This document shows, piece after piece, positions 27,101 to 51,290 of a DNA stretch of 64,000 nucleotides. Numbering within the stretch: the stretch's first letter is position 1; every line of letters begins with the position of its first letter. This DNA comes from a virus, in the IMG/VR virus record IMGVR_UViG_3300028394_000034; one strand, written 5' to 3'. The notes beneath the pieces were generated by a model, which was given only the letters and a program-made list of their open reading frames with translations, was not told where the DNA came from and did no database searches. The translations under genes and the position numbers were made by a program.

Positions 27101-28953
27101 CAACTAGAAGAACATATTCTTATGCTAATGAGGCAGCAAATTATACTCTTGACCCAACTCTTACTGCCGGAGCAGGAGTTGCAGCAAAAGGAGCTAGTAG
27201 AGTAGCTGGAGCAATAGATGCAGCAGATACTGCAAGGAGAGCAGCAGCTGAAGCAGCAGCCAAAGCAGCTGACGACGCAGCTAAAGCAGTAGCAACAAGA
27301 ACAGCAGAAAGAACAGCAGCAGCAGCTAAAGCAGCTGACGATGCAGCTGCAAGAACAGCGGCAGTAGTACGAAAAGAAGAGAAAGCAGCATCAGAAGCAT
27401 TAGCTATGGCTGACAGCACTCCAGATTTCACTCCTCCGAGAGCAACAGATGGAGGCCCCCCACAAGTTCATGGTGAAGATTTTTATGTTAATCCTGGAGA
27501 AGCAGAACAAGCGGCTGTCATGAAGAAAGCGGCAGATGAAGCAGCAGCAAGAACAGCAGCAAGAGCAGCAGAAAAAGAAGCAGCAGAAAAAGCAGCTAGA
27601 CAAGCAGAAACAAAATATCCTGTTAAGAATCCTTCACAAGAATTTAAAGACGCATATGATAAAGCAACAGCTGAAGCAGCAGCAAGGGAAGCTAGTAGAC
27701 CAAAGCCACAGACAGTAACTAATAATCAACCAGATTTAGATAAATCTTTAGATGATTATAGTAAAATTAAAGGAAATGACCCAGCAGCGCCAGCAACAAA
27801 ACCAAGATACGACTTAGACGCAGCTGTAAAACAAGATAAATTTGGCACTACTGCAACCAAAGATCAAACAGGACAAGTAGCTTCTCAACGAGCAATGGAA
27901 GGAACCGCACCAACAGCTCCAACATATCCGGCGACTCCAACAACTTCAACATATCCAAGTCCAACCCCAAGAATAAAACCAGCTGTTCGTCCATTTAGTA
28001 GAAGAGCTGGAGAATTAGCTTTAGTTGGAGGAACAACTTCAGCTGCTACTTATTTTGGAGATACTATGGGTAGGCAGATATTTACCCCGGTAGCAGAGAT
28101 GAATGATGGACTACCTCCTCTTCCTAATACTCCCCCTCAGCCAGCATTTATGCAAAATAGAGTGCCTATGGGACAAGGAGAAGTAGGAAGAGGAGGGGAT
28201 GATCTTCCAAGAGCAAATGAAGAAGACTTAGACAGAAAAAAGAAAAATGCAAAACCTAAATCTTTAGGTGGTTTAATTTATGCTAGTAATGGAGCACTGA
28301 TATCTGCCAAAAAGTCTGGTGCTGATAGGCATTTAGCAATGTTGTCTGATAATGAATATGTGGTCAATAATAAAGATTCACTAAGACACAGAGGATTGTT
28401 AGACGCTATTAATAGTGGTAATTATAGTCGTGGGGGTATAGTTAATTACATGGCTAATGGTGGAGTTGTAGGGGCAAAATATTATCAAAAAGCTGGTTTA
28501 GTAGATCATAGTGGTAATGTTCCTAGTGGAGGATCCTCCGGTGTATCTAGTAATAGTCAAATGTCGGCTGATGCTCTTAGTTCTGTTGTGGATAAATTTG
28601 GACAGCATGTGAATAATATTGCTCCTGCAATTAGCCAATTTGGAGAACACGTTGGTCAAGTATCTCCAGCGTTGATGTCTTTTGGTGGAATGGTTGGTGC
28701 TTTCGGAGGTCATGTAGAAGCTATGAGCGCTGGAGGAACTGTTAGCCATACTCATAGTGTAGAAAATAATCATAGATTTATTGGTGGTGAAAGTATTAAT
28801 AATGTATTGAACACTATGGGTGATGGTCTTAAGATAGCAGCTGATAATAGATTAAAGGATACTCTAAGAAATATTGATACATATAACGAAAATTCACTAT
28901 TAAGAGGCACAGACGCTCAAAGTATTATGGGTAAAAACAATAATATAGCATAA
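18133..28953 (+). CDS. Tape measure protein (3606 aa) with embedded accessory domains
   Basis: TP901-type core at about 18600-19500 (FIDYDREF.KLQQVTG..LAQAGL..VNAVAAKFAVEASDI..RESAETIATGLRTIFTRIQ..ELGGFRQIGK); long helical regions; repeated (Y/F)AxGG..AMLxxGE(F/Y)V motifs; HAD, nuclease-like and EF-hand inserts. Confidence 0.9.
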   Translation: MASAFNLTAQLNLRGPSNVSAIVSNIRRQLGTISANVNVNINPTTTRNVAQLSASLNNLNRTFGTTTTSANNAARALQNFGNSVAQFSNNIRNVPQQINNTTSSIARLNAAMTSSRATSAAAGTEMQEFGRQAGLAARRFAAISTVTSVIFGLTSAIKAGVQAFIDYDREFIKLQQVTGESAAGLKGLSDTIGSLSTSLGVSSKELVDVSSTLAQAGLSARDTEKALKALALSALAPSFDDMNKTVEGSIALMRQFGISAGDLDKALGSVNAVAAKFAVEASDIITAIQRTGGVFATASKGVSEGTDALNEFISVFTSVRATTRESAETIATGLRTIFTRIQRGDTIEALKEYGVNLQDLDGKFVGAFKAVQLLSQGLSKLDPRDLSFSKIVEELGGFRQIGKVIPLIQQFATAQDALKVAQAGQGSLAADAAKAQQSLANQISKVREEFLSLFREIGSSDGFQTIIKGALTLTSTLIKVADSVKGILPALAAMLAFKGASSLVQFGAGFVGAVRGQRRAEGGTIRRYAAGGHVPGSGDGDTVPAMLTPGEFVMRKQAVRSIGVNNLHSLNRNGGGLIQRFANAGEVSDLSKTERTHIGPKIQISAKEAKEARTYGYKQAYASLGVERQIDFKPHLPAEWNQRWRRIGSGEPVPSKDIIDYVASRTPPQLFGNQGIPLRLYQKLSSINKLSSLKQTFLTGLSKLPPTVSKDPQLDFILPQYIKPFLESLDLWGQLSKSQTLSVPKEFSGVSVFDRLRMKGVPREKRRTTTKVRSALAEKFGDTFADGGSVRKFVDAGMVTPTSGRAATSTDIFRVLTLDEVIKDTGSNPGDIQRILKKRNALSPSEQAIKDKILAKYTEKTSGIKKANNLDIEKATTEGLLFGAAGFKGKAFATTPRIDIPGLQNPVKVRITSGVLDSEMSKKLLKKMSGGLNDIANKASRNMMIKDILKQTGPIYADFDRTLAFGADKILADPRKPKYSEFSDRNKVQGALGKAKLSALGAAIVSTIKQAPEFANNLNIISARPQSTMDLVAGWLAQKGIPIPLSRIKGVGGENVTAEQIAVLKADLMNPEGAFVDDDDRNVAEAEKRGIRSYLYKKKNVGSVSRKKLGEANAQGYLAERIIHELGGPIANKATTNYGIDFPDGLQSAAKYFNLPSNIPTDAKLTLNGPAELKGQIGNYLKARGYASGGHVQAMVSAGEAFVPPEEARQIGYGKLNRMNQADRNGMGSFSSGGISVFKGPGTGTSDSIGPVSLPVGGFVLREKATKALGLRSGGSVGGVKRFLTGGTIEDASDALVNANNRAIRPSVRSLDSRLNIPTAQLNELGAALRASGVQMTQFAQLASRGGDVSVAAAKRAIEADIRHSASLGTATVSTTALTAAREVLTRVQSVEAASAENVSRTRQSIVAQRFQNIGNTVSNVPVVGGAVRGLGRVGNGLNGQGGFIASMAVGALAGQGENIFGKKDSSEGAARSNAKLESGATALSTGLGLASSVAMIPGVGPALAGTIAIGTALAVAADSVYDFSGTAQKASQEFKQGKRTKNIEDLGERVGKSMEAYQKNPSGAKERAALISDSLQQSRAISNDSTERVKDLKASRAPNIFQRGLIGLGLSSAKGIGNEDLMQISKESAKKAEPAADAARKIIEQRVDSGEKLSDITNPASKEFQQLTEIIASANPEFINARDRIMEMSDAAVATTGKTKEGLIAERLRIEGAKIANDGYLTAKEKTAAAAKAMEEADKAGRQLAQSFQRMVNTFNQALGKVTFNLEKMENASQANIAALNGNAKVSQVVSKNLNVLSNPRAYSQNERNTAYDNVSAPFGQDKDSVRKLLNLDSENLGFSVRNNINSSLQDRAGLTLDKAASSSRKNLEQEISNLPEIVRNEILGKFDAIAGKVASDTTPGMSEQDKVNKLANLLEEELGKAASESAQNVRNMAIEFEKARVGALNNFIDSINNAAEAQRKAQKSMADARETRIAGGDAINEVLGGAPRSVATLQGRQNFNIGQLTGGITDPVKIRENIERKNARRSQLEEQKQQLAEAKGNNDPGVIQLSGQIAGLNTEIANSSDALGQLANSTEIATAALNKIKDIQQQMSAQGDFLDRLATSTPEEADKLAKTFQRLQNNLAGGFNDARGSQAAQEAYSNALQSGSSHDQAKMAGDAVLAQERAEVLSLFKDLKPLLSLSGKSDAQINAMQGTVRQGVYTESGLLNNPMLGGIAQGQINYDRNPLNNPALRQAVAEHDAAIENRAVAQEQEGKLQLKVASETMASAAAKFAEATQNFAKIFEEMRNGDRKVEPPQRPAPGLPRVANAPAKAKGGLIYASEGMLVNFKPKGPDVIPAMLAKNEYVINAKDTMRNLPLLEAINSGEKIQYASKGGKVGYHANGGGPISASREFALLDKNKDGILSLQEAGEYIKFDTNKDKRITISEFNSQFMADKEEGNRVNRGVSVLRSKEHSRNEAFRRGVSESQVRYERRALFAESKPVKPNAATRPGMDQAPPKENPVDNVPPVPKPSPSSSPRGAEREDPAVTAAKRQQREMDEVREIQRKWQEDRVLPNAREEALLKKYEQRQREESLSENRSKNEEGRVIDQGGAPTTEWGRKYKAQQDARRQKREEKLREEQKKQDDDMAARRKATEKAAEAANNDPEVQKERAERDARYKAEAEAAKADAAKWAAENPEEANKLLKRNPETGLISPAEDRPTTGDSYTDRLRYRAAADALYKREEEKKLQKEAEDADKKEKASLESAFKMGEKIYEREEAERKQKVQEARDAEEERQYLATPEGQERARRSQEQVEQQNLEAFRARKQKEKDDNEAERARRGGGLGGMTQKDVDDANKTYQEYTDYAGAVAGGFFEGLTNNPMTRVLSGVGSAGRYAVQTGAVALTTAASRAIDQQARTQANYGSLGSSSDDKPLDINGPEYRAYYDSLGKLQDASAAGLQAGVVETAGGLTSYVDKKTGNQLLNYSDRLNAQRQGLEDQYLEGADETTRRTYSYANEAANYTLDPTLTAGAGVAAKGASRVAGAIDAADTARRAAAEAAAKAADDAAKAVATRTAERTAAAAKAADDAAARTAAVVRKEEKAASEALAMADSTPDFTPPRATDGGPPQVHGEDFYVNPGEAEQAAVMKKAADEAAARTAARAAEKEAAEKAARQAETKYPVKNPSQEFKDAYDKATAEAAAREASRPKPQTVTNNQPDLDKSLDDYSKIKGNDPAAPATKPRYDLDAAVKQDKFGTTATKDQTGQVASQRAMEGTAPTAPTYPATPTTSTYPSPTPRIKPAVRPFSRRAGELALVGGTTSAATYFGDTMGRQIFTPVAEMNDGLPPLPNTPPQPAFMQNRVPMGQGEVGRGGDDLPRANEEDLDRKKKNAKPKSLGGLIYASNGALISAKKSGADRHLAMLSDNEYVVNNKDSLRHRGLLDAINSGNYSRGGIVNYMANGGVVGAKYYQKAGLVDHSGNVPSGGSSGVSSNSQMSADALSSVVDKFGQHVNNIAPAISQFGEHVGQVSPALMSFGGMVGAFGGHVEAMSAGGTVSHTHSVENNHRFIGGESINNVLNTMGDGLKIAADNRLKDTLRNIDTYNENSLLRGTDAQSIMGKNNNIA

Positions 28954-36881: not shown

Positions 36882-36900
36882 TTTTTAATAGGACTTATTG

Positions 36901-39900
36901 ATGTCATTAACTATAAATAAAAAAATAGCATTAGTAGAATATTTAGGTCCTACAAAAAATATTTCTGCTCTTACTAATGTTTCTGAAATTGACATAATAT
37001 ATAAAGTCAATCCTAATGGTAATGGATACGTTTCTTGGAAGAGTGGTAGTCTTTTTAATTTTCTTTCGACATTAGATGGCCCAGCTGCTGCAACCGTTGG
37101 TGGATCAGTAGAAACTTCTTATTATATCATAATTAGCAAAAGTGACAACCCTAATTATGAACTATATAGTGAATCAGATAGATTAAATAGTAAAGATACT
37201 ATAAATATAGATAAACAAATAGTTATTGTCAAATATCCAGGATCCACAGATTTAACTTTATCTATAGCTCCTTTTAAAAATTATGTATCAAAAATATACA
37301 AAGTTGGAGATACCGGTACTTCTTGGCAAGTTTGGGATCCTAATTCTAATTTTAATGCAATTACAGCCCTTAATACAAATACTATCTATTTATTTCTGTC
37401 ACAAAGTTTTCCTTATAATTTATGGACGATTGCCACCCCAACACCAACACCAACGTTAACTCCAACGCCAACAAAGACTCCAACAGTTACTCCAACAATA
37501 ACACTAACTCCTACAATAACACTAACTCCTACTCAGACACAAACCCCATCAATAACTCCAACAAAAACTGTTACTCCAACAGTTACTCTTACTCCAGGAA
37601 TTTCTCCTTCTCCAACTCCTACGATAACCCCTACTATAAGTGTAACAGCTACTAGAACCCCCACAGTAACCCCTACAGTAACCCCAACACAAAGTCAAGA
37701 TATTTGTATAACTGCTCCTGATAGAGCTATTTACTTTGGAGATCAAGAAAGTATTGGAAAAACTTATGGAGGAGGATATCTTGCTGGATATATATTAGAT
37801 CCAACAAATGCTACTCGTGGATGGGCTTTGATTGTTGCCGAAATAACTGGGTATGCAGAAGGTAATCATTTAAACTTAGGAACCACTTTACTTCAACCAT
37901 TACCAGCTAGTGGTCATTTTTATGATGGGTCTGCTGTTATGGCAAGTGGTCTAGCAGCAGCTAGTGCACAAGGTGTTGATTTTGATACAGCATTGCCAGG
38001 TATGGCTTTTTGTAATAATCTAAATATAGGATTCACACCCTATCAAGGATATGCTGACTGGTATTTACCATCAATATATGAATTAGAATTAATATATAGA
38101 AATTTTAAACCAACAACAAATATTAATGATATTTTAAATTCTAATGGATTTAATAGATATAGTATTCCAGAAGGAGCAGCATACTCCCTCTCAGATCCCG
38201 CACAAACTTCTTGTCGTTCTTGGCAAAATAACGGTGCTGGTTTTATAGGCAATAATTCTTTGATTGATACTAGCAAATATGCAAACAGTAGTCTATTATC
38301 TTCTACTCAAACAGCTACTCCTCAATTTGCTGGCGCTGGAACTAATGTTTGGAGAATTGCTTATATTGATCCTAATAATGGAAATTTCCGCAATTGGGAT
38401 ATATATGAAAATATTAATACTAGTTCTCCTTTTACAGTCAAGCCTATCAGAAGAATAAGTCTACTTACGAATATTACCCCAACTCCAACAAAAACTCAAA
38501 CTCCAACCCCAACAGTTACTCCAACTATCACAATAACTCCGACGACAACAGTAACTCCATCGGTAACTCCAACAAAAACAGTAACTCCTAGCGTAACTCC
38601 GACAATTACTCCAACTATTAGTGTTACTCCCACACTAACTCCAACTGTGAGTATAAGTCTCTCACCAACCCCAACACTAACTCCTAGTCCTACAAAAACA
38701 GTAACTCCTACAATAAGTCTAACTCCCACAATAACCCCAACAGTATCTATTACTCCTACTATTACTCCTAGTTTACCAGCTGATTTAAATACAGTAAACT
38801 ATAATAATCTTGCTATTTTTAATGGAGCAGCAAACTTAACTACGGTAGGTAGTAATGGAGGACAATCATATTATGGACTATATGATATGTCTGGAAATGG
38901 ATCAGAATATATCGGAGATGGATCTAACACATATGTTATTGGTGGATGCTATAACTCATCAGCAACAGATATTAGTAAAAATGCATTATTGAGCGCAACA
39001 TATTCTATAGCAGATGCTTCCACTAGTTTTAGAATAGCTTCTATTAATGATGAGGTTTCTGTTGGAAATTTTGTGACTATTGGAGACGCCGGTAATAATA
39101 ATGATGCTAATGGTAGAGGTGGCGTATCTTATGTTTATAGACTTGGTAAATATCTAGTAACTAATGATGAATATTGTGCTTTCTTAAATAGTGTAGCTAG
39201 AAATTCTGACAATAGAGCTCTTTATAATCCTAGTATGAATTCTGATGCTGTTCGTGGAGGAATATTCAGAATATCTACTATTAGTGGATCAACAGTGACC
39301 TACACCTACGTTTGTAAAACAAATTTTGGAAATAAACCAGTAAATTATGTTTCTTGGTTTGATTGTGCTAGATATTGCAATTGGTTACATAATGGAGCAC
39401 TATCTTCTAGCGATACTGAGACTGGGGCTTATACTTTAACCTCTTTAGTTCCACCAACCAAAAATTCTGGGGCTAGATATTGGCTTCCATCATTAAATGA
39501 ATGGTATAAAGCAGCATATTTTAAAGGAGCAGCACCCGGAGCAGGATATTGGACATATGGAACTAAATATGATACAGTCCCATCTTCAGTAATAGCAAAT
39601 TCTATTGGAGAAGGCCCGTATACCACAGAGAATGAGACATTCCCTCCTGGAAAAATATTCATTTTAACAAACTCTAGGCTTGTTAGTATTGATAATACTA
39701 ATAACTCTATTAAATTTATTGATGGTATTAATTCTACAACAGATTCTATCGTTCTTAGTAGAGATCAAAAATTAGCATTCATATCCAATAATACAATCGG
39801 TGTTGATGTTGTTGATATTTCTTCTTCTAATCAATCAGATTTTTCTGTTATAGCTGGCATAGGAGCAGGATCAAATCCAACAAAACTATTAGTTAATGAT

Positions 39901-41922
39901 GATGGTAATAGACTTCTTATTGTAGGAAACGGATCAAATACAATAAGACTAGTAGATATTACAAACACTCTGTTTTCAACTACAAATATTATACCAAATC
40001 CTTTTACTTCTAATTCCTATATAGATGCATGTTATGGATCTGATTCCAATACTATTTATTTGTTGTCTTATAAAGGTTTTCCAGATTATAGTAATTCTCT
40101 TTATCTATTAACCATGAATAGTGATGGGACAGTAGCTCAGAATATACTAATAAGGACAATATCCTCTGTATCTTCTCCAGAATTATCAAAGATATTTTTC
40201 ATAGATAATAAGATATACTACTATTCTACTCAAAGCAGTGCTATTAATGTATATAGTTCAACTGGATCTCCACTAGGTTCTATTCCTCTATATATTTTTA
40301 ATTCTGGTTCACTAAGTTCATATAATATAATCTTATTAAAAGCATATACAGATACTATTAAACATAGACTGTATTTATATTGTCGTTCAGCATCTACTAC
40401 TGTTACTAATGTTTTTACTATTAATACTATTAATGATACTGTTATAGGATCGACTGTTGTTAATGGTTCCACTAATTTTGCTGGAATAGTTAGTGGAGAT
40501 GTTTTATCTATTGTTTCTGATAAATATCTCCGAGCAGTAGATACTACAAATAGACAAATTATCAATAATATTGATTTGACTCAATATGGATTAACAAATA
40601 CAGAAATCTCTAATATAAAAGGTCTTGCTTTCAAATCTAATGATCCTCCAAAGTTCACCCCAACAGCAACAAGAACGCCAACTCCAACTCCAACACTAAC
40701 CCCATCAGTAACAGCAACACAAACCCCGACACCCACAATAACTCCAACTAAGACAGTAACACCGACCCCATCATTAACTCCTCCAGAGACACCACCAGCA
40801 TTCGTAAACAATATACTGTCTGCTGTAGGGTTAAATAATCTAGGACAATTAGGAGATGGTACATATAAATCTAAAAATAGATTCATAACTATAACTGCTC
40901 CTTCTGGAGATATTACTTCCACTAATTATCCAATTAGAGCTAGTGCTTTAGGTGACCATAATCTGATTATAGATTCAAATAATAGAATGTGGGGCTGGGG
41001 GGCTAATGATAAAGGACAGGTTGGAACAGCTAATTGGAAAGCAACGTCTATCTTTAATAACGGAAATACTCCCGACAATATCATCTATGATGGAATTGCT
41101 AATAAGTATACATTGTTCAGTTCCAATATATCAAACACTGCCCTTATGTCTAGTGACGGTTTGAGTTGGGGACCAACATCTCTTCCTTCAAACTCCTTAT
41201 GGTCAGCTTCTGCTGGATTTAATACAAAAATAGCAGGAATTCCAGCAAATATAGAAGCATCATCGTTCGTGGCTGCAAATGCATCAAACGTACTGGCTCA
41301 ATATAGTATGAGTACAAATGCTTGGACAACAAAGACATTGCCATCTGCAAATAATTGGACAACAATGACTCAAAATGGATCAAGATTCTTTATCTTCTCT
41401 AGCAATTCTTCTAAAGTAGTATATTTTGTTCCAGCTATTAATCTAGCTTCATTTTCTACAGGAGAAATTAGTCTTGGTACAACCTCTAATAGTATATATT
41501 GGAAATCAGCAGCATCATATAGCAAAAATATTGTTGCCATATCTTATAACAATAATATTATAACTAGAAGCTTAGACTCAGGAAATACTTGGACTATTAC
41601 TAATATGCCGGTATCTGCAAATTGGGAGCAGATTATTTATGTTGGACCTAGATTAATAGCAATTGCCTCAAATTTAGACGCAATCTATATTAGCGAAGAT
41701 AACGGAACAACATGGACACAGAAAAATTTACAAGTTTTTGGTGGATGGTCAAGTATAACCTACTTTAATAATACATTAATTTTAGTTGCAAAAAATGGCC
41801 TATACTACTTGATTAGTTCAGATAGTGGAAATACTTGGAGCAAAAAAATCCTTCCGTCAGGACTATATGTCACACCAACGCCAACCGCTACCTTAACTCC
41901 AACACCGAGTAAGGGTGTATAG
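36901..41922 (+). CDS. Multi-domain adhesin: DUF1566/Lcl C-type lectin, permuted FGE-sulfatase domain, YVTN-like propeller, partial RCC1, BNR-like propeller, Pro/Thr linkers
   Basis: GGGYLAG..FCNNL..GYADWYLPSIYELE (DUF1566); YDMSGN..FRIAS..GKYLVTNDEYCAFLN..NYVSWFDCARYCNWLHNG..LNEWYKAAY (FGE type); NNLGQLGDG/WGWGANDKGQVG (RCC1); SSDSGNTW (Asp-box). ATG 36901 fits the AGGA RBS. Confidence 0.75.
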   Translation: MSLTINKKIALVEYLGPTKNISALTNVSEIDIIYKVNPNGNGYVSWKSGSLFNFLSTLDGPAAATVGGSVETSYYIIISKSDNPNYELYSESDRLNSKDTINIDKQIVIVKYPGSTDLTLSIAPFKNYVSKIYKVGDTGTSWQVWDPNSNFNAITALNTNTIYLFLSQSFPYNLWTIATPTPTPTLTPTPTKTPTVTPTITLTPTITLTPTQTQTPSITPTKTVTPTVTLTPGISPSPTPTITPTISVTATRTPTVTPTVTPTQSQDICITAPDRAIYFGDQESIGKTYGGGYLAGYILDPTNATRGWALIVAEITGYAEGNHLNLGTTLLQPLPASGHFYDGSAVMASGLAAASAQGVDFDTALPGMAFCNNLNIGFTPYQGYADWYLPSIYELELIYRNFKPTTNINDILNSNGFNRYSIPEGAAYSLSDPAQTSCRSWQNNGAGFIGNNSLIDTSKYANSSLLSSTQTATPQFAGAGTNVWRIAYIDPNNGNFRNWDIYENINTSSPFTVKPIRRISLLTNITPTPTKTQTPTPTVTPTITITPTTTVTPSVTPTKTVTPSVTPTITPTISVTPTLTPTVSISLSPTPTLTPSPTKTVTPTISLTPTITPTVSITPTITPSLPADLNTVNYNNLAIFNGAANLTTVGSNGGQSYYGLYDMSGNGSEYIGDGSNTYVIGGCYNSSATDISKNALLSATYSIADASTSFRIASINDEVSVGNFVTIGDAGNNNDANGRGGVSYVYRLGKYLVTNDEYCAFLNSVARNSDNRALYNPSMNSDAVRGGIFRISTISGSTVTYTYVCKTNFGNKPVNYVSWFDCARYCNWLHNGALSSSDTETGAYTLTSLVPPTKNSGARYWLPSLNEWYKAAYFKGAAPGAGYWTYGTKYDTVPSSVIANSIGEGPYTTENETFPPGKIFILTNSRLVSIDNTNNSIKFIDGINSTTDSIVLSRDQKLAFISNNTIGVDVVDISSSNQSDFSVIAGIGAGSNPTKLLVNDDGNRLLIVGNGSNTIRLVDITNTLFSTTNIIPNPFTSNSYIDACYGSDSNTIYLLSYKGFPDYSNSLYLLTMNSDGTVAQNILIRTISSVSSPELSKIFFIDNKIYYYSTQSSAINVYSSTGSPLGSIPLYIFNSGSLSSYNIILLKAYTDTIKHRLYLYCRSASTTVTNVFTINTINDTVIGSTVVNGSTNFAGIVSGDVLSIVSDKYLRAVDTTNRQIINNIDLTQYGLTNTEISNIKGLAFKSNDPPKFTPTATRTPTPTPTLTPSVTATQTPTPTITPTKTVTPTPSLTPPETPPAFVNNILSAVGLNNLGQLGDGTYKSKNRFITITAPSGDITSTNYPIRASALGDHNLIIDSNNRMWGWGANDKGQVGTANWKATSIFNNGNTPDNIIYDGIANKYTLFSSNISNTALMSSDGLSWGPTSLPSNSLWSASAGFNTKIAGIPANIEASSFVAANASNVLAQYSMSTNAWTTKTLPSANNWTTMTQNGSRFFIFSSNSSKVVYFVPAINLASFSTGEISLGTTSNSIYWKSAASYSKNIVAISYNNNIITRSLDSGNTWTITNMPVSANWEQIIYVGPRLIAIASNLDAIYISEDNGTTWTQKNLQVFGGWSSITYFNNTLILVAKNGLYYLISSDSGNTWSKKILPSGLYVTPTPTATLTPTPSKGV

Positions 41923-41926
41923 AATA
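41913..41926 (+). promoter_or_regulatory. Candidate promoter motif GGGTGTATAGAATA overlapping the stop codon at 41920-41922
   Basis: GTGTA begins 37 nt before ATG 41952. Confidence 0.45.
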
Positions 41927-41951
41927 ATACATAATTTATTTAGGATTAAAC

Positions 41952-44900
41952 ATGGTTAATTTCAGAAAATTAATAACTGGTAATGGTTTTGTACTAGGTA
42001 TCGGAGACGAAAACGATAAATTATACGTTTTTGGGGACGAAATCAATAAAAATTCTATTAGTAGAATGGGAAATGATGGTGATTTATATGGGAGTAGATG
42101 GTCTTCAATTGCTGTAAATTATAAGCATTCCGCCGCTATTGATATTAATAATAAGCTATATATATGGGGAGATAATTATTACGGTCAATTAGGACTTGGT
42201 GGTAGTATATCAAATGCAGTTGACCCACAGCTTCTTAATAATGATTTATGGTCATCGGTTAGTTGTGGAGCGTTTCATACGTCTGCCATTAAAGGAGATG
42301 GATCTTTATGGACTTGGGGAGATAATACTTTCGGACAAATAGGAAACGGAACAGTGGGTGGGAATTTTTCAAAATTCTTCCCTGTACAAATTTCTTCATA
42401 TGATTTTAATACTGTCTCTCTTCTTATGCATATGGATGGAATTGATGGAAGTTCAGTATTCACAGATAGTTCATTCAGAAATTTCACCTTGAACAAAGTT
42501 GGATCTCCTGTGATCTCTACAGTTCAAAGTAAGTTTGGAAATTCTTCTTATTACAAGGGAACATCATCTTCTTCTTGTCTTTATACTATAGATGATGCTT
42601 TTAAGTTTGGATCTGAAGACTTTACTGTAGAAGCATATGTATATTTGATTGGAGGAAGTTTAGGCTACAATATTTTAATGGATACTCGGAAAACTAGCGA
42701 TGGTTCTGGAGGTTCTTGGTTTGGAGTCTATAATGGTATGCTCTATTATGAAGATAAACCAACAATTAGTATGCCTACTAATAAATGGGTTCATGTTGCT
42801 TTTGTTAGAAGCTCAGGATCTTTAAAGCTATATCTAGATGGAGTTTTAGTTTATACCATAACTTCTACTATAGATTATAGTTCAGGATATTTTTCTCTAG
42901 GAGGAGCCAGCTACTCTTCGTTAGGAGCAACTCCATTTAATGGATATATTGACGAAGTAAGAATAAGCAAAGGAGTTCCAAGATACTTAACCAACTTTAC
43001 TCCAACAACAGTCCCATTTACCAATATTAATGAAGTTTATACTAAGGTAGTTAGTGGTACAAATTTTAATATTGCTATTAAAAATGACGGGACTTTATGG
43101 TCATGGGGAAATAATACCTATGGTCAATTAGGACTATCAGATAATCTTTCTAGATATATTCCAACTCAAATAACAGGAACTAACTGGGCAGATATTTCTT
43201 GTGGGGATGGGCATGTTATTGCTATAAAATCTAATGGAGAACTATATTCTTGGGGATATAATCAAAATGGAGAATGTGGATTAGGAGATAATTCAAATAA
43301 AAATGCACCTAATAAAATCACACTCCTTAAAGCGAATGATAGTCCAATTAACTTAGTTGGAATAACTGTAGACAATCAAAAAAGAATAGCCTGTGGAAGA
43401 AACCACAGTTTTATCATCGCAAATACTGCTGGTGTAAATAATGTTTTATATGGAACAGGAAAGAATGATAATGGACAATTAGGAACAGGAGACAGTATAG
43501 CGAAAAATTTCTTTACTGCTATAGACTTGAGTAAACGACATCTTTCTGTTAATGCTGGAGCAAGTCATAGTATTGTTAAGCTAGATATTCCTGCTAATCA
43601 GCCTACTCCATCTCCAACCCCTACATCTACCGTTACTCCTACTGTAACTCAAACAATTACTCCTACAGTAACACCAACTGTTAGTATTACTCCAACAATA
43701 ACTCCAACTAAGAGTGTTACTCCAACGGTAACCCCAACAATATCGTCATCCCCAATACTTACCAGAACTCCTACTCCAACAGTAACTCCTTCTCAAACTC
43801 CGCCCTCAAGAATTGGTAAATTTTGGATACCAATGACCGCTCTAAGTAAAGTTTGGAGCGGTATAGCCTACTCATCATCTCTAAATAAATTTATAGGGGT
43901 TCCTATTGGAAATATAGGCATGGTTAGTTCGGTTGGCGTAGGCAATTCTTGGCAAGAATCCAATCTTCTGCCTAACTCCATAATATGGAATGTAATTGAC
44001 GGAGGAGACTTTATCTTAGGATATGGACCTAACACACTATATACTGCAATAAGTAATGATGGATTTACTTGGGCTCCTGGTCCTAATTCTCGTCAAGATA
44101 CTCAGTCTCAAGAAGGATCAATTATTAGTACCTCTAAAGTAGGAAATCAGATAATATCTCTTACATATCCGCTTGATGCTATTTCTCCATTAGGTTATAG
44201 AATTCTCAAAAAAGACAATTCATCTTTAGTTTTTTCAAATAGAATATACCATAAAGACTCTAATAATAAGAATATTATCTATAAAGATAGTGCTAATTGC
44301 AATAATGTTGCTAAAACACTAACTGACGTAAGATACAATGGAGGACCCGGACCATATGGTACTTATGATATGGGAGGGAACGTTTATAATTGGACAGATA
44401 CTACAGCAGGATCTTATAAAGTTTATAGAGGTAACAATTATCTCAGTAATTTTAATACCTCTAGAAATTATAGTGTATCCCCAACAACAACTGATGGTAG
44501 CATAGGAGTTAGATTTGTTACAACTCAAAGCTCTCCATCTTATAGTTCTTTTGTTTCTGTCGGAGATGCTGGAAATAGCGGAAATTCTGGATATGGTGCC
44601 GTCTCATATAACTATAAGATTCAAAAATATCCAGTAACGTGTTCTGAATATGTTGAATTTTTAAATGCTGTTGCTTTAAATGGTGATCCAAACTCATTAT
44701 ACGATCCCTTGATGAGTGAATACTCCGTACCATATGGAGTAAAGAGTCAAATAAACTTATCTTCTGGAACTTCAGGATATCCTAGAGTACTTTTAGTTAA
44801 AGATGTTTTTCTTTATGTTATTCATTATCCTATTGGTGGTTCGTATATAGAAGTTATAGATACTAGCACAGATACTATCGTTAAACAAATTCCATTCGGA

Positions 44901-47279
44901 GGAGGCGGGGCATCTGATATTTTTGCAGTATTTAATTCAGATAAGACTAAGATATATATTCATCCTTATGGAAGTTATTTTATTTATGAACTAGATACAA
45001 CGACTAACACAGTATCTACTATGACTAGTCTTTTCCAAAGTTCTACTTTTAGTAATGTTTGGTCTGACATGATATATGATCAAACAAATGACAGACTTTT
45101 ATTTTTATCTTGGGGAGCTTTTGAGGTCAAAGCATTTAATTTAGCTACAAAAACTGCTACTACCATAATTAAAAATTCAACCACAACTTTAGGTTTTATT
45201 TATAGATCCAATGCGTTTTTGTATAATAATAAACTATATGCATTAAGTTCTACATATAGTAGTCTTAATACAACTTCTGGAACATTATCAGTAATTAATT
45301 TATCAAATAATACATCAACAAACTATGCAATAGATAGCGGACCACTCAGCTCAGGCTTTAATGAAACAACAGGCAAAATATATATTGGTTGTAATAATTA
45401 TTCTACTACTACAAATAAAATAAAAGTATTTGATATTGCTCAAAACTTATTCGAAACAGATATTAGTTTAAATTTAGGATCTAGAAGAATATATAAATTC
45501 TTAGTAGATAAAACTAATAATAAAATTTATGTATGTGGAGGAAATACTAGTGGAGGCTTTGTTATTACTATTGTTCCAGGTCCTGTTTCTGCTTCTGTTT
45601 CTTTATTAGATATTAATTCTAATATAGAGTCTATAGCACTAGATAGCACAAAGAATAAACTGTTCGTTTCTTCACAATCTTTGACAGGTATCGGGGGAGG
45701 CAGATATCCAGTAATAGTATCTGTTATAGATACAAGCAATACTACTCTATTAAAAACAACACAACTACCAATAATATTAGGAGCCCATTTAGTTTCAATT
45801 GATTCTTTAAATAAAATATATATTGCAGGAAGTACATTTTCGAGTTTTTTTACTGGTTCTGTGGTATCAATTTCTTCATTATCAGGGACCTACTCAGTAA
45901 AGAGTGGATTAGATTATTATCCAGCAAGATACATAAATTTCTACAATGCTGCAAGAATGGCTAATTGGCTTAGTAATGGAAAACCAACAGGTACCCAAAC
46001 AGCATCGACAACAGAAAACGGGGCTTATAATTTAAGTGCAGGAAATACTGGGACACCAGAAAGGAATACTGCTAATCCTAATACTGGAGGAGGAGCGCCT
46101 TTATATTATATAGCAAATGAGAACGAATGGTACAAAGCAGCTGCTTATAAGGGAGGAAGTACTAATGCTGGTTATTGGAATTATTATACGGCTAGTGACA
46201 AAGCTCCAAAAGCTATTTCTTTAGACTCTAATGGAGAGTCTATTAATTTAGTTCTAAACTCAGTAGCATCAAGAGAAAAAGATGGACTAACAGTTATGGT
46301 TGGAGATGATATTGTTTTAGTTGGTAATCCTATAACAAATGTTTGGACCAAAACAGACATAGCTTTTGCCAGTACCAATAATAGCAATAGCTATAAGAGT
46401 CCTTACCACATACTAATGAATAATTCAAGCACTATAGTAGTGATTCCTAAGAGTGTCTGGCCAAACCCATTACCAACTACTACCTATATTTATAGTACAG
46501 ATAATGGAGTTACTTGGACAGCCGCAACCCTATTTGTTCCGTCTGGGACAACAATAGGGGCTGCAATCTATAGTAATGGATATTTTGTTCTTATTCCAAT
46601 AACCACGACAAGTAGAACTGACTCGGTATATTTATCGACAGATGGAATTAATTGGACATCTTATGATGTCCCTTACCTAAAAGGTAAAACCTGGATAGGA
46701 ATGGCTAGTAAAGAAAATCTAATTGTTCTACTGTCAAATAGTTCTGCTGGGGCAATAAGTTATAGTGACGATATTTTAATAACAAGTCCAACTCCAACCC
46801 CAACAATCACAACGACACCCTCATCCCTTAGCATTTCCATTACTGAACAACCTTTAGACCAGTCCGTTCAACTAAATGTGGATAGTACCTCTGGACCAAC
46901 AGTTATTTTTTCTGTTTCTGCTATTAGCAGAGCTCAAATCTCATATCAATGGCAGCAATCAATTGATAATGGAGTATCTTTTAGCAATATAGTTGGAGAA
47001 AATAGTTCAAGTTTAACCATATCAGATATTACATTAGATGATAATAATTCTAAATATAGAGTAGTATTAACCTCTCCGGGTCTTCAAACAGTTACTAGTT
47101 CAATAGCAACACTAAAAGTATTAACTGGTTCGTGTATAACTATATCTCAACAGCCTGTTGATACGATAGCTTCTAATGCTTCTGTCACATTAACTGTGAA
47201 TGCTCGTATTCCTTGTGCTGAAACTCCAACTCCAACTCCTACTCCAACCGTAACACCATCAGCAACTCGAAGGATTTAA
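41952..47279 (+). CDS. Multi-domain adhesin: RCC1 repeats with LamG insert, BNR-like propeller with nested FGE and YVTN domains, one Ig plus a half Ig
   Basis: Multiple G..H..IK.DG.LW.WG.N..GQLG repeats; VSLLMHMDG..SKFG..DFTVE..WVHVAFVR..FNGYIDEVRISKG (LamG); YDMGGNVYNW..GVRFV..KYPVTCSEYVEFLN..ENEWYKAA; YQWQQS.D.G..YRVV. Confidence 0.75.
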   Translation: MVNFRKLITGNGFVLGIGDENDKLYVFGDEINKNSISRMGNDGDLYGSRWSSIAVNYKHSAAIDINNKLYIWGDNYYGQLGLGGSISNAVDPQLLNNDLWSSVSCGAFHTSAIKGDGSLWTWGDNTFGQIGNGTVGGNFSKFFPVQISSYDFNTVSLLMHMDGIDGSSVFTDSSFRNFTLNKVGSPVISTVQSKFGNSSYYKGTSSSSCLYTIDDAFKFGSEDFTVEAYVYLIGGSLGYNILMDTRKTSDGSGGSWFGVYNGMLYYEDKPTISMPTNKWVHVAFVRSSGSLKLYLDGVLVYTITSTIDYSSGYFSLGGASYSSLGATPFNGYIDEVRISKGVPRYLTNFTPTTVPFTNINEVYTKVVSGTNFNIAIKNDGTLWSWGNNTYGQLGLSDNLSRYIPTQITGTNWADISCGDGHVIAIKSNGELYSWGYNQNGECGLGDNSNKNAPNKITLLKANDSPINLVGITVDNQKRIACGRNHSFIIANTAGVNNVLYGTGKNDNGQLGTGDSIAKNFFTAIDLSKRHLSVNAGASHSIVKLDIPANQPTPSPTPTSTVTPTVTQTITPTVTPTVSITPTITPTKSVTPTVTPTISSSPILTRTPTPTVTPSQTPPSRIGKFWIPMTALSKVWSGIAYSSSLNKFIGVPIGNIGMVSSVGVGNSWQESNLLPNSIIWNVIDGGDFILGYGPNTLYTAISNDGFTWAPGPNSRQDTQSQEGSIISTSKVGNQIISLTYPLDAISPLGYRILKKDNSSLVFSNRIYHKDSNNKNIIYKDSANCNNVAKTLTDVRYNGGPGPYGTYDMGGNVYNWTDTTAGSYKVYRGNNYLSNFNTSRNYSVSPTTTDGSIGVRFVTTQSSPSYSSFVSVGDAGNSGNSGYGAVSYNYKIQKYPVTCSEYVEFLNAVALNGDPNSLYDPLMSEYSVPYGVKSQINLSSGTSGYPRVLLVKDVFLYVIHYPIGGSYIEVIDTSTDTIVKQIPFGGGGASDIFAVFNSDKTKIYIHPYGSYFIYELDTTTNTVSTMTSLFQSSTFSNVWSDMIYDQTNDRLLFLSWGAFEVKAFNLATKTATTIIKNSTTTLGFIYRSNAFLYNNKLYALSSTYSSLNTTSGTLSVINLSNNTSTNYAIDSGPLSSGFNETTGKIYIGCNNYSTTTNKIKVFDIAQNLFETDISLNLGSRRIYKFLVDKTNNKIYVCGGNTSGGFVITIVPGPVSASVSLLDINSNIESIALDSTKNKLFVSSQSLTGIGGGRYPVIVSVIDTSNTTLLKTTQLPIILGAHLVSIDSLNKIYIAGSTFSSFFTGSVVSISSLSGTYSVKSGLDYYPARYINFYNAARMANWLSNGKPTGTQTASTTENGAYNLSAGNTGTPERNTANPNTGGGAPLYYIANENEWYKAAAYKGGSTNAGYWNYYTASDKAPKAISLDSNGESINLVLNSVASREKDGLTVMVGDDIVLVGNPITNVWTKTDIAFASTNNSNSYKSPYHILMNNSSTIVVIPKSVWPNPLPTTTYIYSTDNGVTWTAATLFVPSGTTIGAAIYSNGYFVLIPITTTSRTDSVYLSTDGINWTSYDVPYLKGKTWIGMASKENLIVLLSNSSAGAISYSDDILITSPTPTPTITTTPSSLSISITEQPLDQSVQLNVDSTSGPTVIFSVSAISRAQISYQWQQSIDNGVSFSNIVGENSSSLTISDITLDDNNSKYRVVLTSPGLQTVTSSIATLKVLTGSCITISQQPVDTIASNASVTLTVNARIPCAETPTPTPTPTVTPSATRRI

Positions 47280-47282
47280 CAA

Positions 47283-50200
47283 ATGAGTCTAGCATATCAA
47301 TGGCAAGTTTCAACAGATGGCGGGGTAACATATTCAGATATACCAGCAAATACTCCTGGTGTTACTGGAGAAACTTCTTCTTCTTTGATATTAACTGGAC
47401 TTACAGCCTCTAATAATAAATCTAAATATAGAGTTAGATTATCAGACACCGATGCGGTAACATCTCCTACAAACAGCAAACCAGCAACAATAACAACCGC
47501 CCCATCGGTATCGATTGCTAACCTATCAAACGCTTTTTCTTCAAATGGATCTGCAACTATTACTGTTAGTGCAACATCTGATATTGGTAGTTTATCTTAT
47601 CAATGGCAAAAGTCAACAGACGGAATTAGCTTTATTAATCTTAATGATGTTACTGGATCAGTTTCTGGTTCTAATACAAGCTCTTTGGTTCTAAGTAATC
47701 TTGTTCCAGCTATCGATAATAATACTAAATATAGAGTTGTTGTTGGAGGACAATGTTGTGGTACCACAACTCTTTATAGTAATAGTACCATATCAACATT
47801 AACAGTTCAATCTACTAATCAAACAATAAGAATAATTGCTCATCCAACAGACGAACTGATTATCAATGGATTAGCAACCTTTACAGTTTCTGCAACAACA
47901 ACTAGTGATATCGGTCTTATTAATACTGGATCTGTTATTGGATATCAATGGCAAAAATTTATTAATAATGCTTGGACAAATATTTTAGGTGCTACAAAGA
48001 GTAGCTTAAATTTATCTGGACTAGTAAAAGCAGATGCTAATTCTCAATATAGAGTTGTGGTTTATGACTTCAATGGGTCAATATCCTCTAATATTGCACA
48101 AATCTTTAATAGTAGTACTGTTCCTCCATGCTATCCTCAATGTGGTGGTCAAGGATGGGGAGACGTTCATTATTATATAGAAGGTCCAGGGCGCTCATTT
48201 TTAGCTAGATTAGATGATAATCCACCAGGAGCTAAAAACGAACACCTAATATTGTATATTAAAAATAACAAAACAAATAATGAATATAGATTATCGGCAA
48301 CATTAAAGGGGTGGCCGGTAGTAAGTAATCCCAATCCTTTAATATTTGACAAAATTTACTTTAAAACTTTTGATGGACAACAAAATACAACTAAAATTGA
48401 AGAGCTGTCATTAGGATCAAAAAAAGTTATAGAAAATATAGTCTCTTTTACCACCTCTCCTCTAGTTATGCCTTTTGTATGGGAAATATTGAATCCGACT
48501 AATATTGCTGAAATTAATAATTTAGATATTACTATAGGAGGAGTTTGGTATTGGATTAATAAATCTTTCATAGAATATAAAAAATCAAATCCTAAATTTG
48601 CAAAATTAGGCTGGCCTAATATTTCGGGAGCAGCAGTTGATGGAATAGGCATGGTTTTAAAACCATATTCTATAGTTAGGTCGGATTTTGAAAAAGCAGC
48701 ATCAGCACAAGCTGGATCAGCAGAGTTATCTAAGGTTTGTGAAACTCTTGTTAATGATGATGGTGTTAAAAATTTCTGGCAGGATCTAACAGGAGTATTA
48801 AATCAAATTCCATATGATCCAACTACTGGAAAATGGAAAAATCAAGTAGAAAAAATTATTTGTATAACATCAAACCCGATATCTGCAATAGCTCAGAATG
48901 GATCAGCAACATTTTATTGTTCTAGCAATTACTCTACTGATTTCGTTTGGCAAAAATCTAAAGACAACGGTATTTCTTGGACTGATATAACGTCAAATAA
49001 TGATACAAATTTTATTATATCTGGAGACAAAAACTCAGTACAATCTTCTCTTCAAAAGTATAATTTGACAGTATCAAATAATGGAGAACTATATAGAGCA
49101 TTATTACAGAATAAGAGTATCACAAGCAATTCAGCTAAATTAACCTATACTGCTTCTAATCTTTCTATCCTAACAGAACCAGTTAATCAAAATAGTATTA
49201 ATTTACAAGCTACATTTACTAGTTATGCTAGTGGAACAGCTCCTATTAGTTATCAGTGGTATAAATCTGATAATAATGGTGAAATATTTGATAAAATATC
49301 TGGAGCAGTTAGTTCTGGAATATCTCTTACTAATCTTAATATGAATGATGACGGAGATCTTTATAGAGTAAATATCAAAGACGGAGCAGGAAACTCCTAC
49401 GATTCAAAAATAGCAAAACTAACAATTAATCCAGTTATAACAATAACAAATCAGCCAACTAATCAAACAGCTTCAAATGAAGAGACCGCCACCTTCATAA
49501 CATCTGCAACCTGCAATAACGGAGATATCTCTTATATCTGGGAAATGTCTCATGATGGAAAACAGTTTTCTCCCGTTGGAGGGGGTAGTCCTAGTGGAGT
49601 ATTAGCTTTATCTGGGCTTAAAAGCTATAACAATGGAGATATATATAGGGCAAAAATAATATCTTTACTTAAATCAAATTCTGTTTATACTAACAATGTT
49701 ACTCTTAGTGTTCCAAGAAGCTTATCTATAGCTACCCAACCAACTGATCAATTAGCTATAAATGGAACTGCAACTTTTAGTATAAATGCTTCTACTACAC
49801 AATCTAGTATAACATACCAGTGGCAAAAATCAACAGACGGTATAAACTATACCAATATAGCCCAAGCAACCGGATCTTCTCTTGTTCTTAGTAATCTTAC
49901 TTTACAAGATGACAATACTAAATTTAGAGTTATTTTACAAGATGACAGGGATTACTTAGTAAGTAATACTGCTAATCTAGATACTACTCCCCAAATAACT
50001 ATTACTCAACAACCAACAAGCTACACAGCAACTAATTATAGTGTTGATTTAACCTGTAATGCCACAACTACTGGTGGAGCTATCGCTATTCAGTGGCAAC
50101 AAAGTAGAGGAGATTATGAGTATTATACCAATATTTCTGGAGTAACAGCAACAACAAATAGACTAATACAACAGATTACTCCTGATGAAAATGGCAAGAA

Positions 50201-51290
50201 ATTCAGAGCCAAATTAGATGTAACAGGAGCACGAACAGTATTCTCAGATATTGCTACAATAACTGTTCCTCAGAGTATATCTATTAATACTTCTAATACT
50301 GATGTTCCAGTATCTAAAAAGGTTAACTATCCAAACAAAGATATAATCCTCTCTATTGATGCTTCTTCAGTCAAACCTCCACTAACTTATCAGTGGCAAA
50401 AATCAACACCAAGTGGATCAGTCGTAGCCTTTAGCTTTGCCAATAACGATATTCTATCTAATAAGGTTCAATTATTGTTAGAGTTTGATGGAACAATTAA
50501 TACTCAAAATTTTGTTGATAGTAGTCAAAATGCTTTAACAGTTAAAGTATACTCAAATAATACTGAAACAACTTCGGCTAATACTTCTTTAAACACTATT
50601 GTCAAAAAATTTGGATCTGCTAGTGCTAAATTTGATACTACTGGAAAATTAAGAGTGATTGACACAAATGATAAGTTAAAATTTCAAAATAATTTTACCA
50701 TAGAATGCTGGTACTATACCTCTTTGCCCCAAGATATGTGTTTGATTAGCAGGAGATTGACTACTACCACATCTAATGGTCAAGAAGGTTGGTTTTTAAC
50801 TCCATTCAGATTTGCTGCTAGATTAGGTTCTGTTTGGAAAGACAATCTAATAGACGATAGAATTTCTATTGATAATATGGATATTAATACATGGACACAT
50901 ATAGCACTCACCAGATCAAATAATACTTATAGACTGTTTCGAAATGGATTATTGGTTGGTTCATTTTATAGCTTTTTACCGCTAGATGAAAATTCTGGAT
51001 CTATTCATATAGGAGATGCTTCAGGAGAAAGCACACAACTACAATGGATTGGCTATATAGACCGATTAAAAATTACAAATGGAGTTGCTAGATATACTTC
51101 TAGTTTTGATCCTAATGCTTCTATTGATAGTAACTATACTTCTTATGGCAATTATGGAGCATATACAGATATATCTGGGGCCAATTCTAATACGTTAAAC
51201 TTAACTAATTTATCTGATATTAATAATGGTGAAAAATATAGGGTTATTTTAACGGATCAAGTTTCTCAAATAATTACAGAGGCAACATAA
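47283..51290 (+). CDS. Poly-Ig protein (about eight full Ig plus an N-terminal half Ig) with VWD-like and LamG inserts
   Basis: Repeated ITxQP...ATFxxxA...YQWQKS.DG...L.L.NL...DN..YRV; GWGDVHY insert; second LamG (VQLLLEFDG..KKFG..NFTIECW..WTHIALTR..GYIDRLKITNG). Confidence 0.8.
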   Translation: MSLAYQWQVSTDGGVTYSDIPANTPGVTGETSSSLILTGLTASNNKSKYRVRLSDTDAVTSPTNSKPATITTAPSVSIANLSNAFSSNGSATITVSATSDIGSLSYQWQKSTDGISFINLNDVTGSVSGSNTSSLVLSNLVPAIDNNTKYRVVVGGQCCGTTTLYSNSTISTLTVQSTNQTIRIIAHPTDELIINGLATFTVSATTTSDIGLINTGSVIGYQWQKFINNAWTNILGATKSSLNLSGLVKADANSQYRVVVYDFNGSISSNIAQIFNSSTVPPCYPQCGGQGWGDVHYYIEGPGRSFLARLDDNPPGAKNEHLILYIKNNKTNNEYRLSATLKGWPVVSNPNPLIFDKIYFKTFDGQQNTTKIEELSLGSKKVIENIVSFTTSPLVMPFVWEILNPTNIAEINNLDITIGGVWYWINKSFIEYKKSNPKFAKLGWPNISGAAVDGIGMVLKPYSIVRSDFEKAASAQAGSAELSKVCETLVNDDGVKNFWQDLTGVLNQIPYDPTTGKWKNQVEKIICITSNPISAIAQNGSATFYCSSNYSTDFVWQKSKDNGISWTDITSNNDTNFIISGDKNSVQSSLQKYNLTVSNNGELYRALLQNKSITSNSAKLTYTASNLSILTEPVNQNSINLQATFTSYASGTAPISYQWYKSDNNGEIFDKISGAVSSGISLTNLNMNDDGDLYRVNIKDGAGNSYDSKIAKLTINPVITITNQPTNQTASNEETATFITSATCNNGDISYIWEMSHDGKQFSPVGGGSPSGVLALSGLKSYNNGDIYRAKIISLLKSNSVYTNNVTLSVPRSLSIATQPTDQLAINGTATFSINASTTQSSITYQWQKSTDGINYTNIAQATGSSLVLSNLTLQDDNTKFRVILQDDRDYLVSNTANLDTTPQITITQQPTSYTATNYSVDLTCNATTTGGAIAIQWQQSRGDYEYYTNISGVTATTNRLIQQITPDENGKKFRAKLDVTGARTVFSDIATITVPQSISINTSNTDVPVSKKVNYPNKDIILSIDASSVKPPLTYQWQKSTPSGSVVAFSFANNDILSNKVQLLLEFDGTINTQNFVDSSQNALTVKVYSNNTETTSANTSLNTIVKKFGSASAKFDTTGKLRVIDTNDKLKFQNNFTIECWYYTSLPQDMCLISRRLTTTTSNGQEGWFLTPFRFAARLGSVWKDNLIDDRISIDNMDINTWTHIALTRSNNTYRLFRNGLLVGSFYSFLPLDENSGSIHIGDASGESTQLQWIGYIDRLKITNGVARYTSSFDPNASIDSNYTSYGNYGAYTDISGANSNTLNLTNLSDINNGEKYRVILTDQVSQIITEAT

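Follow-up and report, generated by a model that had tools for sequence, protein, structure and literature searches.

Can a single immunoglobulin-like (Ig) domain be encoded in two pieces by two consecutive genes of a virus, and if so, are the two pieces partners? The question is raised by a stretch of 64,000 nucleotides of viral DNA, IMG/VR record IMGVR_UViG_3300028394_000034 (this whole stretch is referred to below as the window), in which a large open reading frame, ORF1, ends with strands A-B of an Ig domain and the following one, ORF2, begins with strands C-G. Twenty-four intact Ig domains from the same family of proteins served to build a profile hidden Markov model (HMM) of 99 positions; on this profile, the intact Ig domains of the window score 55-115 bits. 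The features of the gene pair are as follows.

41952-47279, plus strand: ORF1, a putative fibre/adhesin protein of 1775 residues (open reading frame list, Pfam, translation), composed of an RCC1 propeller with a nested LamG domain, an FGE-sulfatase-like domain, propeller repeats, one intact Ig domain, the Ig A-B half and a Pro/Thr tail.
46830-47120, plus strand: intact Ig domain D1 of ORF1, residues 1627-1723 (HMM positions 7-96, 93.2 bits).
47130-47207, plus strand: orphan N-terminal Ig half (strands A-B) of ORF1, residues 1727-1752 (HMM positions 6-31/32 only), also present in ORF1 orthologues.
47208-47276, plus strand: Pro/Thr-rich tail of ORF1, whose counterpart in relatives is a linker bearing variable C-terminal cargo domains.
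47271-47274, plus strand: AGGA Shine-Dalgarno-like motif, 8 nucleotides 5' of the ORF2 ATG and within the last ORF1 codons.
47277-47285, plus strand: junction TAA-CAA-ATG (TAA 47277-47279, CAA 47280-47282, ATG from 47283), in a single frame.
47289-47504, plus strand: orphan C-terminal Ig half (strands C-G) of ORF2, residues 3-74 (HMM positions 37-98, 53.9 bits).
47283-51290, plus strand: ORF2, a putative fibre/adhesin protein of 1335 residues (open reading frame list, Pfam, HMM scan), composed of the Ig C-G half, two Ig domains, a non-Ig middle domain, five Ig domains and a final Ig domain with a LamG domain nested after strand C.

The end of ORF1 matches HMM positions 6-32 only, with 18.3 bits, and the beginning of ORF2 matches positions 37-98 only; when the two halves are spliced, they are recognised as a single domain of 68.8 bits spanning positions 7-98. 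On the profile of intact domains the halves are complementary, with neither overlap nor gap, and a scan of all the open reading frames of the window returned exactly one orphan A-B half and exactly one orphan C-G half. In translation, the C-terminus of ORF1 carries the A-B strand segment ..ITISQQP..SVTLTVNA.. followed by the Pro/Thr tail, and ORF2 starts with MSLAYQWQVSTDGG, the strand-C motif YQWQ standing at its immediate beginning. Pfam recognised RCC1, LamG and FGE-sulfatase-like domains in ORF1 and Ig_3 and LamG in ORF2, and the spliced halves match an Ig-like (I-set/Ig_3-type) profile over the whole domain. These matches indicate that one I-set-like Ig domain is encoded as two pieces by consecutive putative fibre/adhesin genes. 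A reading of the bare sequence that preceded this analysis (the original prediction) had proposed such a cut, the likeness of the joined halves to the intact neighbouring domains, the continuity of frame across TAA-CAA-ATG and an AGGA motif proper to ORF2, and these observations were borne out.

The position of the break was then compared among relatives. Fourteen orthologues of ORF2 were obtained by protein search (E<1e-245, 35-97% identity), and the DNA context was analysed in nine further relatives (L055-L063; L058 and L059 are the same, which leaves eight distinct lineages) as well as in L001 from IMG/VR. All 14 orthologues start with M-x-[LI]-x-Y-[QK]-W-Q at HMM position 36/37, and in all 14 the first domain is devoid of strands A-B. 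On the upstream side, an intact Ig domain, an A-B half (HMM positions 2-5 to 31-35) and a Pro/Thr linker were found in succession in each of the eight relatives with a readable upstream gene (L001, L056, L057, L058, L060, L061, L062 and L063); 10 of the 11 ORF1 orthologues recovered by protein search show the same arrangement. What follows the linker is variable. L001 and L060 resemble the window, their upstream protein finishing with the intact Ig domain, the A-B half and a Pro/Thr tail; in L056, L057, L058 and L062 the linker is followed by about 460 residues with two LamG domains up to the stop, in L061 by a long Pro/Thr stretch and a BNR-like propeller of about 480 residues, and in L063 by about 530 residues of other domains. 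The grammar is invariant: Ig, Ig(A-B), Pro/Thr linker, optional cargo and stop on one side, start, Ig(C-G), Ig and so forth on the other. A survey of homologues had been suggested with the original prediction, and it reveals a break point kept in about ten diverged lineages.

The same comparison bears on the possibility that the split is a functionless, decaying relic of gene fission or of a recombination junction, or else an assembly or sequencing error. Modular repeat proteins often recombine and partial domains can remain at the junctions. However, the junction TAA-CAA-ATG of the window is identical in L055, an independent assembly from ENA whose ORF2 is 97% identical, so that the TAA is not an assembly error, a concern that the original prediction had itself raised; in addition, the ORF1 orthologues P0133 (87%) and P0134 (61%) terminate where ORF1 does, and the split recurs in about ten diverged lineages. 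Furthermore, the halves persisted through three or more exchanges of the cargo past the linker. The mean pairwise column identity of the C-G half is 0.50-0.52, compared to 0.23-0.62 (mostly 0.4-0.55) for 40-residue blocks over the rest of ORF2, and that of the A-B half is 0.48, compared to 0.46 for the intact domain D1 and 0.415 for ORF1 overall. By this measure both halves are conserved at the level of intact domains, and a neutral remnant would not retain a column identity of about 48-52% at such divergence. The comparative data largely refute the relic or the error, either of which we consider very unlikely.

The original prediction had offered two explanations of the junction, fold complementation between two proteins or read-through of the stop. 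Under the second, the TAA would be read through in the window (in the relatives, a frameshift or ribosome hopping would intervene), the product would be one protein of about 3100 residues, and the Pro/Thr stretch would form a long B-C loop. It is true that in the window and in its 97% identical twin the genes are in frame with only TAA-CAA between them, and programmed frameshifting is known to add Ig-like extensions to phage structural proteins (PMC5009743). In the eight other lineages, however, the genes are separated by spacers of 31-75 nucleotides with frame offsets of 0, 1 or 2, and each of them has a stop in the ORF2 frame 6-33 nucleotides ahead of the ATG, this frame nowhere overlapping the ORF1 coding sequence. 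The mixed frames and the stops that precede the ATG exclude read-through or a simple frameshift fusion as the mechanism of the family. In-frame spacing occurs in about one third of the lineages, as expected by chance, and only the lineage of the window has the in-frame TAA-CAA-ATG. Far from a conserved open frame leading into a downstream part without initiation signals, the relatives present an ATG kept in 14/14 ORF2 orthologues 3-4 codons before the strand-C Tyr (2 codons in a second gene family described below) and, in most lineages, AGG or AGGA 8-14 nucleotides 5' of it; five relatives have an AGG at a distance similar to that of the window. The conserved ATG, the AGG/AGGA and the stops just upstream all indicate that ORF2 is translated from its own ATG.

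Other ways of joining the two products were considered. Inspection of the spacers revealed that the last ORF1 codon varies by lineage (ATT, GTA, GGA, TCA, GAT, GCA, AAC, TGT); in these spacers no last codon recurs beside the ATG and no matched take-off and landing codons of the kind used in T4 gene 60 bypassing were found. Pfam detected no Hint/intein domain in ORF1 or ORF2 that would point to a split intein or to trans-splicing, and the break is flanked by the Pro/Thr tail on one side and directly by strand C on the other, with no intein fragments. Among proteins of 2338-5000 residues no fused ORF1-ORF2 form was present, only generic Ig proteins of the Bacteroidota surface protein type, which is weak evidence. 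Given these data, a joining of the two genes by recoding appears extremely improbable. Of the two explanations first offered, read-through found no support, and fold complementation gains indirect support from the conserved break point, the second gene family, the conserved halves and the structure model.

The same Ig split is present in a second, unrelated gene pair, carried by a large phage contig of 238 kb (L064/L065, IMGVR_UViG_3300043464_002284 and 3300044616_001642). At 5820-6060 of L064, an A-B half and a Pro/Thr tail terminate the upstream protein, in which DUF642 and PA-IL lectin domains are also present, and, after a spacer of 57 nucleotides, the next protein begins with MINYKWQVSTD. 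The proteins P0042, P0048 and P0070 likewise have their N-terminus in the B-C loop, and in P0234 the chain stops past strand B. From one gene family to the other, the split C-G halves share 31-41% identity, compared to 43% with the best intact domain, and they do not form a clear clade of their own. When a representative library was searched with the C-G half, only internal repeats of multi-Ig proteins were retrieved. The strand-C motif WQVSTD stands at an open reading frame start in 5 of the 119 IMG/VR matches listed, and all 5 belong to these lineages; as judged by these searches, the split is rare. On the same count WQVSTD was rejected as a motif specific for the split. The 54 IMG/VR loci of the first scans were likewise set aside, most of them matching through ordinary Ig domains only, without a split.

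A short DNA motif was noticed in the spacers. GGTGTAWWT lies 0-12 nucleotides 3' of the stop of the upstream gene in most relatives (L001 8396-8404, L056 3869-3877, L057 5950-5958, L058 5953-5961, L060 5959-5967, L062 2670-2678); a variant is found in L064 near 5946, the motif lies farther downstream in L063, and none occurs within the L061 spacer. It is missing from the 3-nucleotide spacer of the window and is not enriched across the window. The motif might act on the downstream gene, as a promoter or as a signal of another kind.

Whether the halves can close into one fold was approached by AlphaFold2 modelling of window 46824-47813 with the TAA read as Q, a segment comprising D1, the split domain and the next Ig domain. 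The A-B part of the alignment consisted of only two near-identical rows, because MAFFT aligned the orthologous A-B pieces with an incorrect Ig repeat or stretched entire proteins. The mean predicted local distance difference test (pLDDT) score of the model was 79, with values below 50 for the linker (residues 132-153), 65-76 for the A-B strands and 74-90 for the C-G half. A two-sheet beta-sandwich is predicted for the linked halves: PDB chains with two or three Ig domains align with model residues 103-330 and 1-330 (Z 12-14, root-mean-square deviation 3-7 Å). Chains with two Ig domains align over residues 103-330 with about 180/190 residues at 3-4 Å, and the three Ig domains I67-I69 of titin align over all three model domains with Z 14.4. 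The model closes the halves into one Ig domain with the disordered linker looped out, which attests to compatibility rather than necessity.

Combined, the sequence comparisons and the model make it probable that the conserved trans-split Ig domain is a non-covalent joint between two proteins. We infer from sequence both the mutual binding of the halves and the location of the two proteins in a virion fibre, and several points weigh against them. The model joined the halves covalently and is a weak test of their association, and the pLDDT of the A-B strands is moderate. In a control prediction, residues 1-177 of ORF2 alone reached a pLDDT of 90.7, as confident as the linked model, so the model is no proof that the C-G half needs a partner. 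The ORF1 orthologue P0137 is without the A-B end. The conservation of the halves is a sign of constraint and not a proof of mutual partnership. Finally, it is from gene position after the tape-measure gene and from domain content that the fibre identity of the proteins is drawn.

The control prediction and the different end of P0137 also speak for a reading in which the split is conserved without the halves being each other's partners: the A-B hairpin would serve as a spacer or prolong the domain before it, and the C-G half would fold alone, pair with another protein, swap domains with its own copy or serve as a disordered attachment peptide. An Ig sandwich deprived of strands A and B would, however, have an exposed core. 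Moreover, over about 40% divergence both halves keep the Ig strand pattern as well as intact domains do, the halves are always found in adjacent genes in the same order, and the window holds a single orphan of each kind. We regard this reading as unlikely, though it deserves more weight than a relic or a recoded fusion.

If the split domain is indeed a joint, it could operate as follows. The A-B hairpin of ORF1 would insert, during or after synthesis, in the incomplete sandwich at the N-terminus of ORF2 and complete the fold; the completed Ig domain would join the two proteins end to end, non-covalently, in a composite fibre of about 3100 residues. The chain exiting at the B-C loop would become a free C-terminal arm with a flexible Pro/Thr linker. 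In the relatives such an arm would bear exchangeable lectin-type cargo, be it two LamG domains, a BNR-like propeller or other domains, and in the window it would have been reduced to a bare tail by loss of the cargo. The tight TAA-CAA-ATG coupling of the window would favour co-localised synthesis, a lineage-specific trait. A comparable organisation is found at the other end of ORF2, where a LamG domain of about 240 residues is inserted in cis after strand C of the last Ig domain (window 50259-50420 and 51141-51278): HMM positions 2-49 are matched by residues 993-1046, and the domain resumes with positions 44-89 at residues 1287-1332, at the C-terminus. This nesting of LamG in the last Ig domain is present in all the ORF2 orthologues examined, and the Ig family tolerates large cis insertions in its loops. 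The split domain likely originated in a similar loop-nested insertion that was cut at its distal end.

Two observations concern cysteines of the gene pair. Cys1728 and Cys1755 of ORF1 (window 47133-47135 and 47214-47216) flank the A-B hairpin; they are also found in P0133 and P0134, the other lineages being without them, and a disulfide between the two could staple the hairpin. In the second full Ig domain of ORF2 (window 47750-47770, residues ~158-161), a vicinal Cys motif, Q/K-C-C-G-T, is invariant across the aligned orthologues.

The genes lie downstream of a tape-measure gene (window 18133-28953, 3606 residues, PF10145 near the N-terminus), the size of which implies an unusually long tail. 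According to Pfam, the neighbours of ORF1 and ORF2 encode other giant lectin-like proteins, a collagen/Mtd_N fibre and an alginate lyase. Because of the tape-measure gene and of these lectin-like and fibre neighbours, the region is assigned by its gene content to the tail/adhesin module of an uncultured phage. The contigs of the relatives are 160-238 kb long, and no isolated phage in INPHARED matches the window at the DNA level.

The previous gene boundary (window 40800-42100) shows a layout like that of the Ig split, with a partial domain, cargo and a stop followed by what may be the rest of the domain. At the C-terminus of the 36898-41922 product, about two RCC1 motifs are followed by a BNR/Sortilin-like domain and a Pro/Thr tail, and the N-terminus of ORF1 lies in RCC1 repeats (M[AV]NF[RK]..ITGNG); this RCC1 layout is also found in L001 (2000-3400) and in L060 (1-950), without the Pro/Thr tail there. 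One may speculate, though we find it somewhat doubtful, that the fibres are chains of giant proteins in which each link is a domain split between consecutive genes with lectin cargo on the loop of the break point, an Ig domain here, possibly an RCC1 propeller at the previous boundary and possibly another beta-sandwich elsewhere, according to a general grammar of modular joints by which receptor-binding fibres would be assembled and re-tooled.

Should the halves pair, a virus would offer a natural case of a heterotypic joint made by complementation with two strands. Such a joint would be a compact and portable coupling of two very large proteins, with interchangeable sugar-binding domains hung on it; it would help to explain how fibres are assembled from several proteins of 1300-3600 residues in uncultured large phages and how receptor-binding modules are swapped there with the attachment point undisturbed, and protein engineers would gain another split-Ig pair, one of natural origin. 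The annotation of such phages also calls for caution, as half-domains at gene ends are not necessarily pseudogenes or assembly errors.

How does this split domain compare with known systems? Ig-like domains are found on phage structural proteins, where they are sometimes added via programmed frameshifts (Fraser et al. 2006, reviewed in PMC5009743). As in those cases (PMC5009743), the Ig-like domains here are located at gene ends and appear mobile by recombination; in contrast, a whole Ig domain is added there to one polypeptide by recoding, and here one domain extends over two separately initiated genes, recoding being excluded in the relatives. Literature searches on strand or fold complementation in phage fibres did not turn up any account of fibre genes that share one Ig domain. 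The resemblance to nested domains such as the last Ig domain of ORF2 with its LamG lies in the use of an Ig loop as the exit or entry point for another domain, and the A-B half, linker and two LamG domains of the relatives resemble a nesting cut at its distal end. In nested domains, however, the host fold is completed by the same chain after the insertion, whereas here the first chain stops and the remainder comes from a second gene. SpyTag/SpyCatcher, derived by splitting CnaB2, is an engineered beta-sandwich in two polypeptides that reconstitutes spontaneously with a covalent isopeptide bond; the pair described here is natural and gives no sign of a covalent bond. In chaperone-usher pili, an incomplete Ig-like fold is completed by one or more strands of the neighbouring subunit, which results in a non-covalent fibre, and strand exchange is also known from the type V pili of Bacteroidota. 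The likeness to this donor-strand complementation is that an Ig fold is encoded incomplete, as observed for the first domain of ORF2 in 14/14 orthologues, and that the missing strands are proposed to come from a neighbour. No chaperone, usher or protease is evident in the window, the other large or neighbouring genes of which gave phage tail, lectin or collagen-type matches or none in Pfam. Further differences reside in the phage setting and in the geometry: two N-terminal strands (A-B) are missing here instead of the C-terminal G strand of pili, and the donor would be a hairpin that another, very large protein carries close to its C-terminus, forming one heterotypic joint and no homopolymer. 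By this analogy, the split Ig domain would at most work like donor-strand complementation, in a phage tail module that is not a member of the pilus family.

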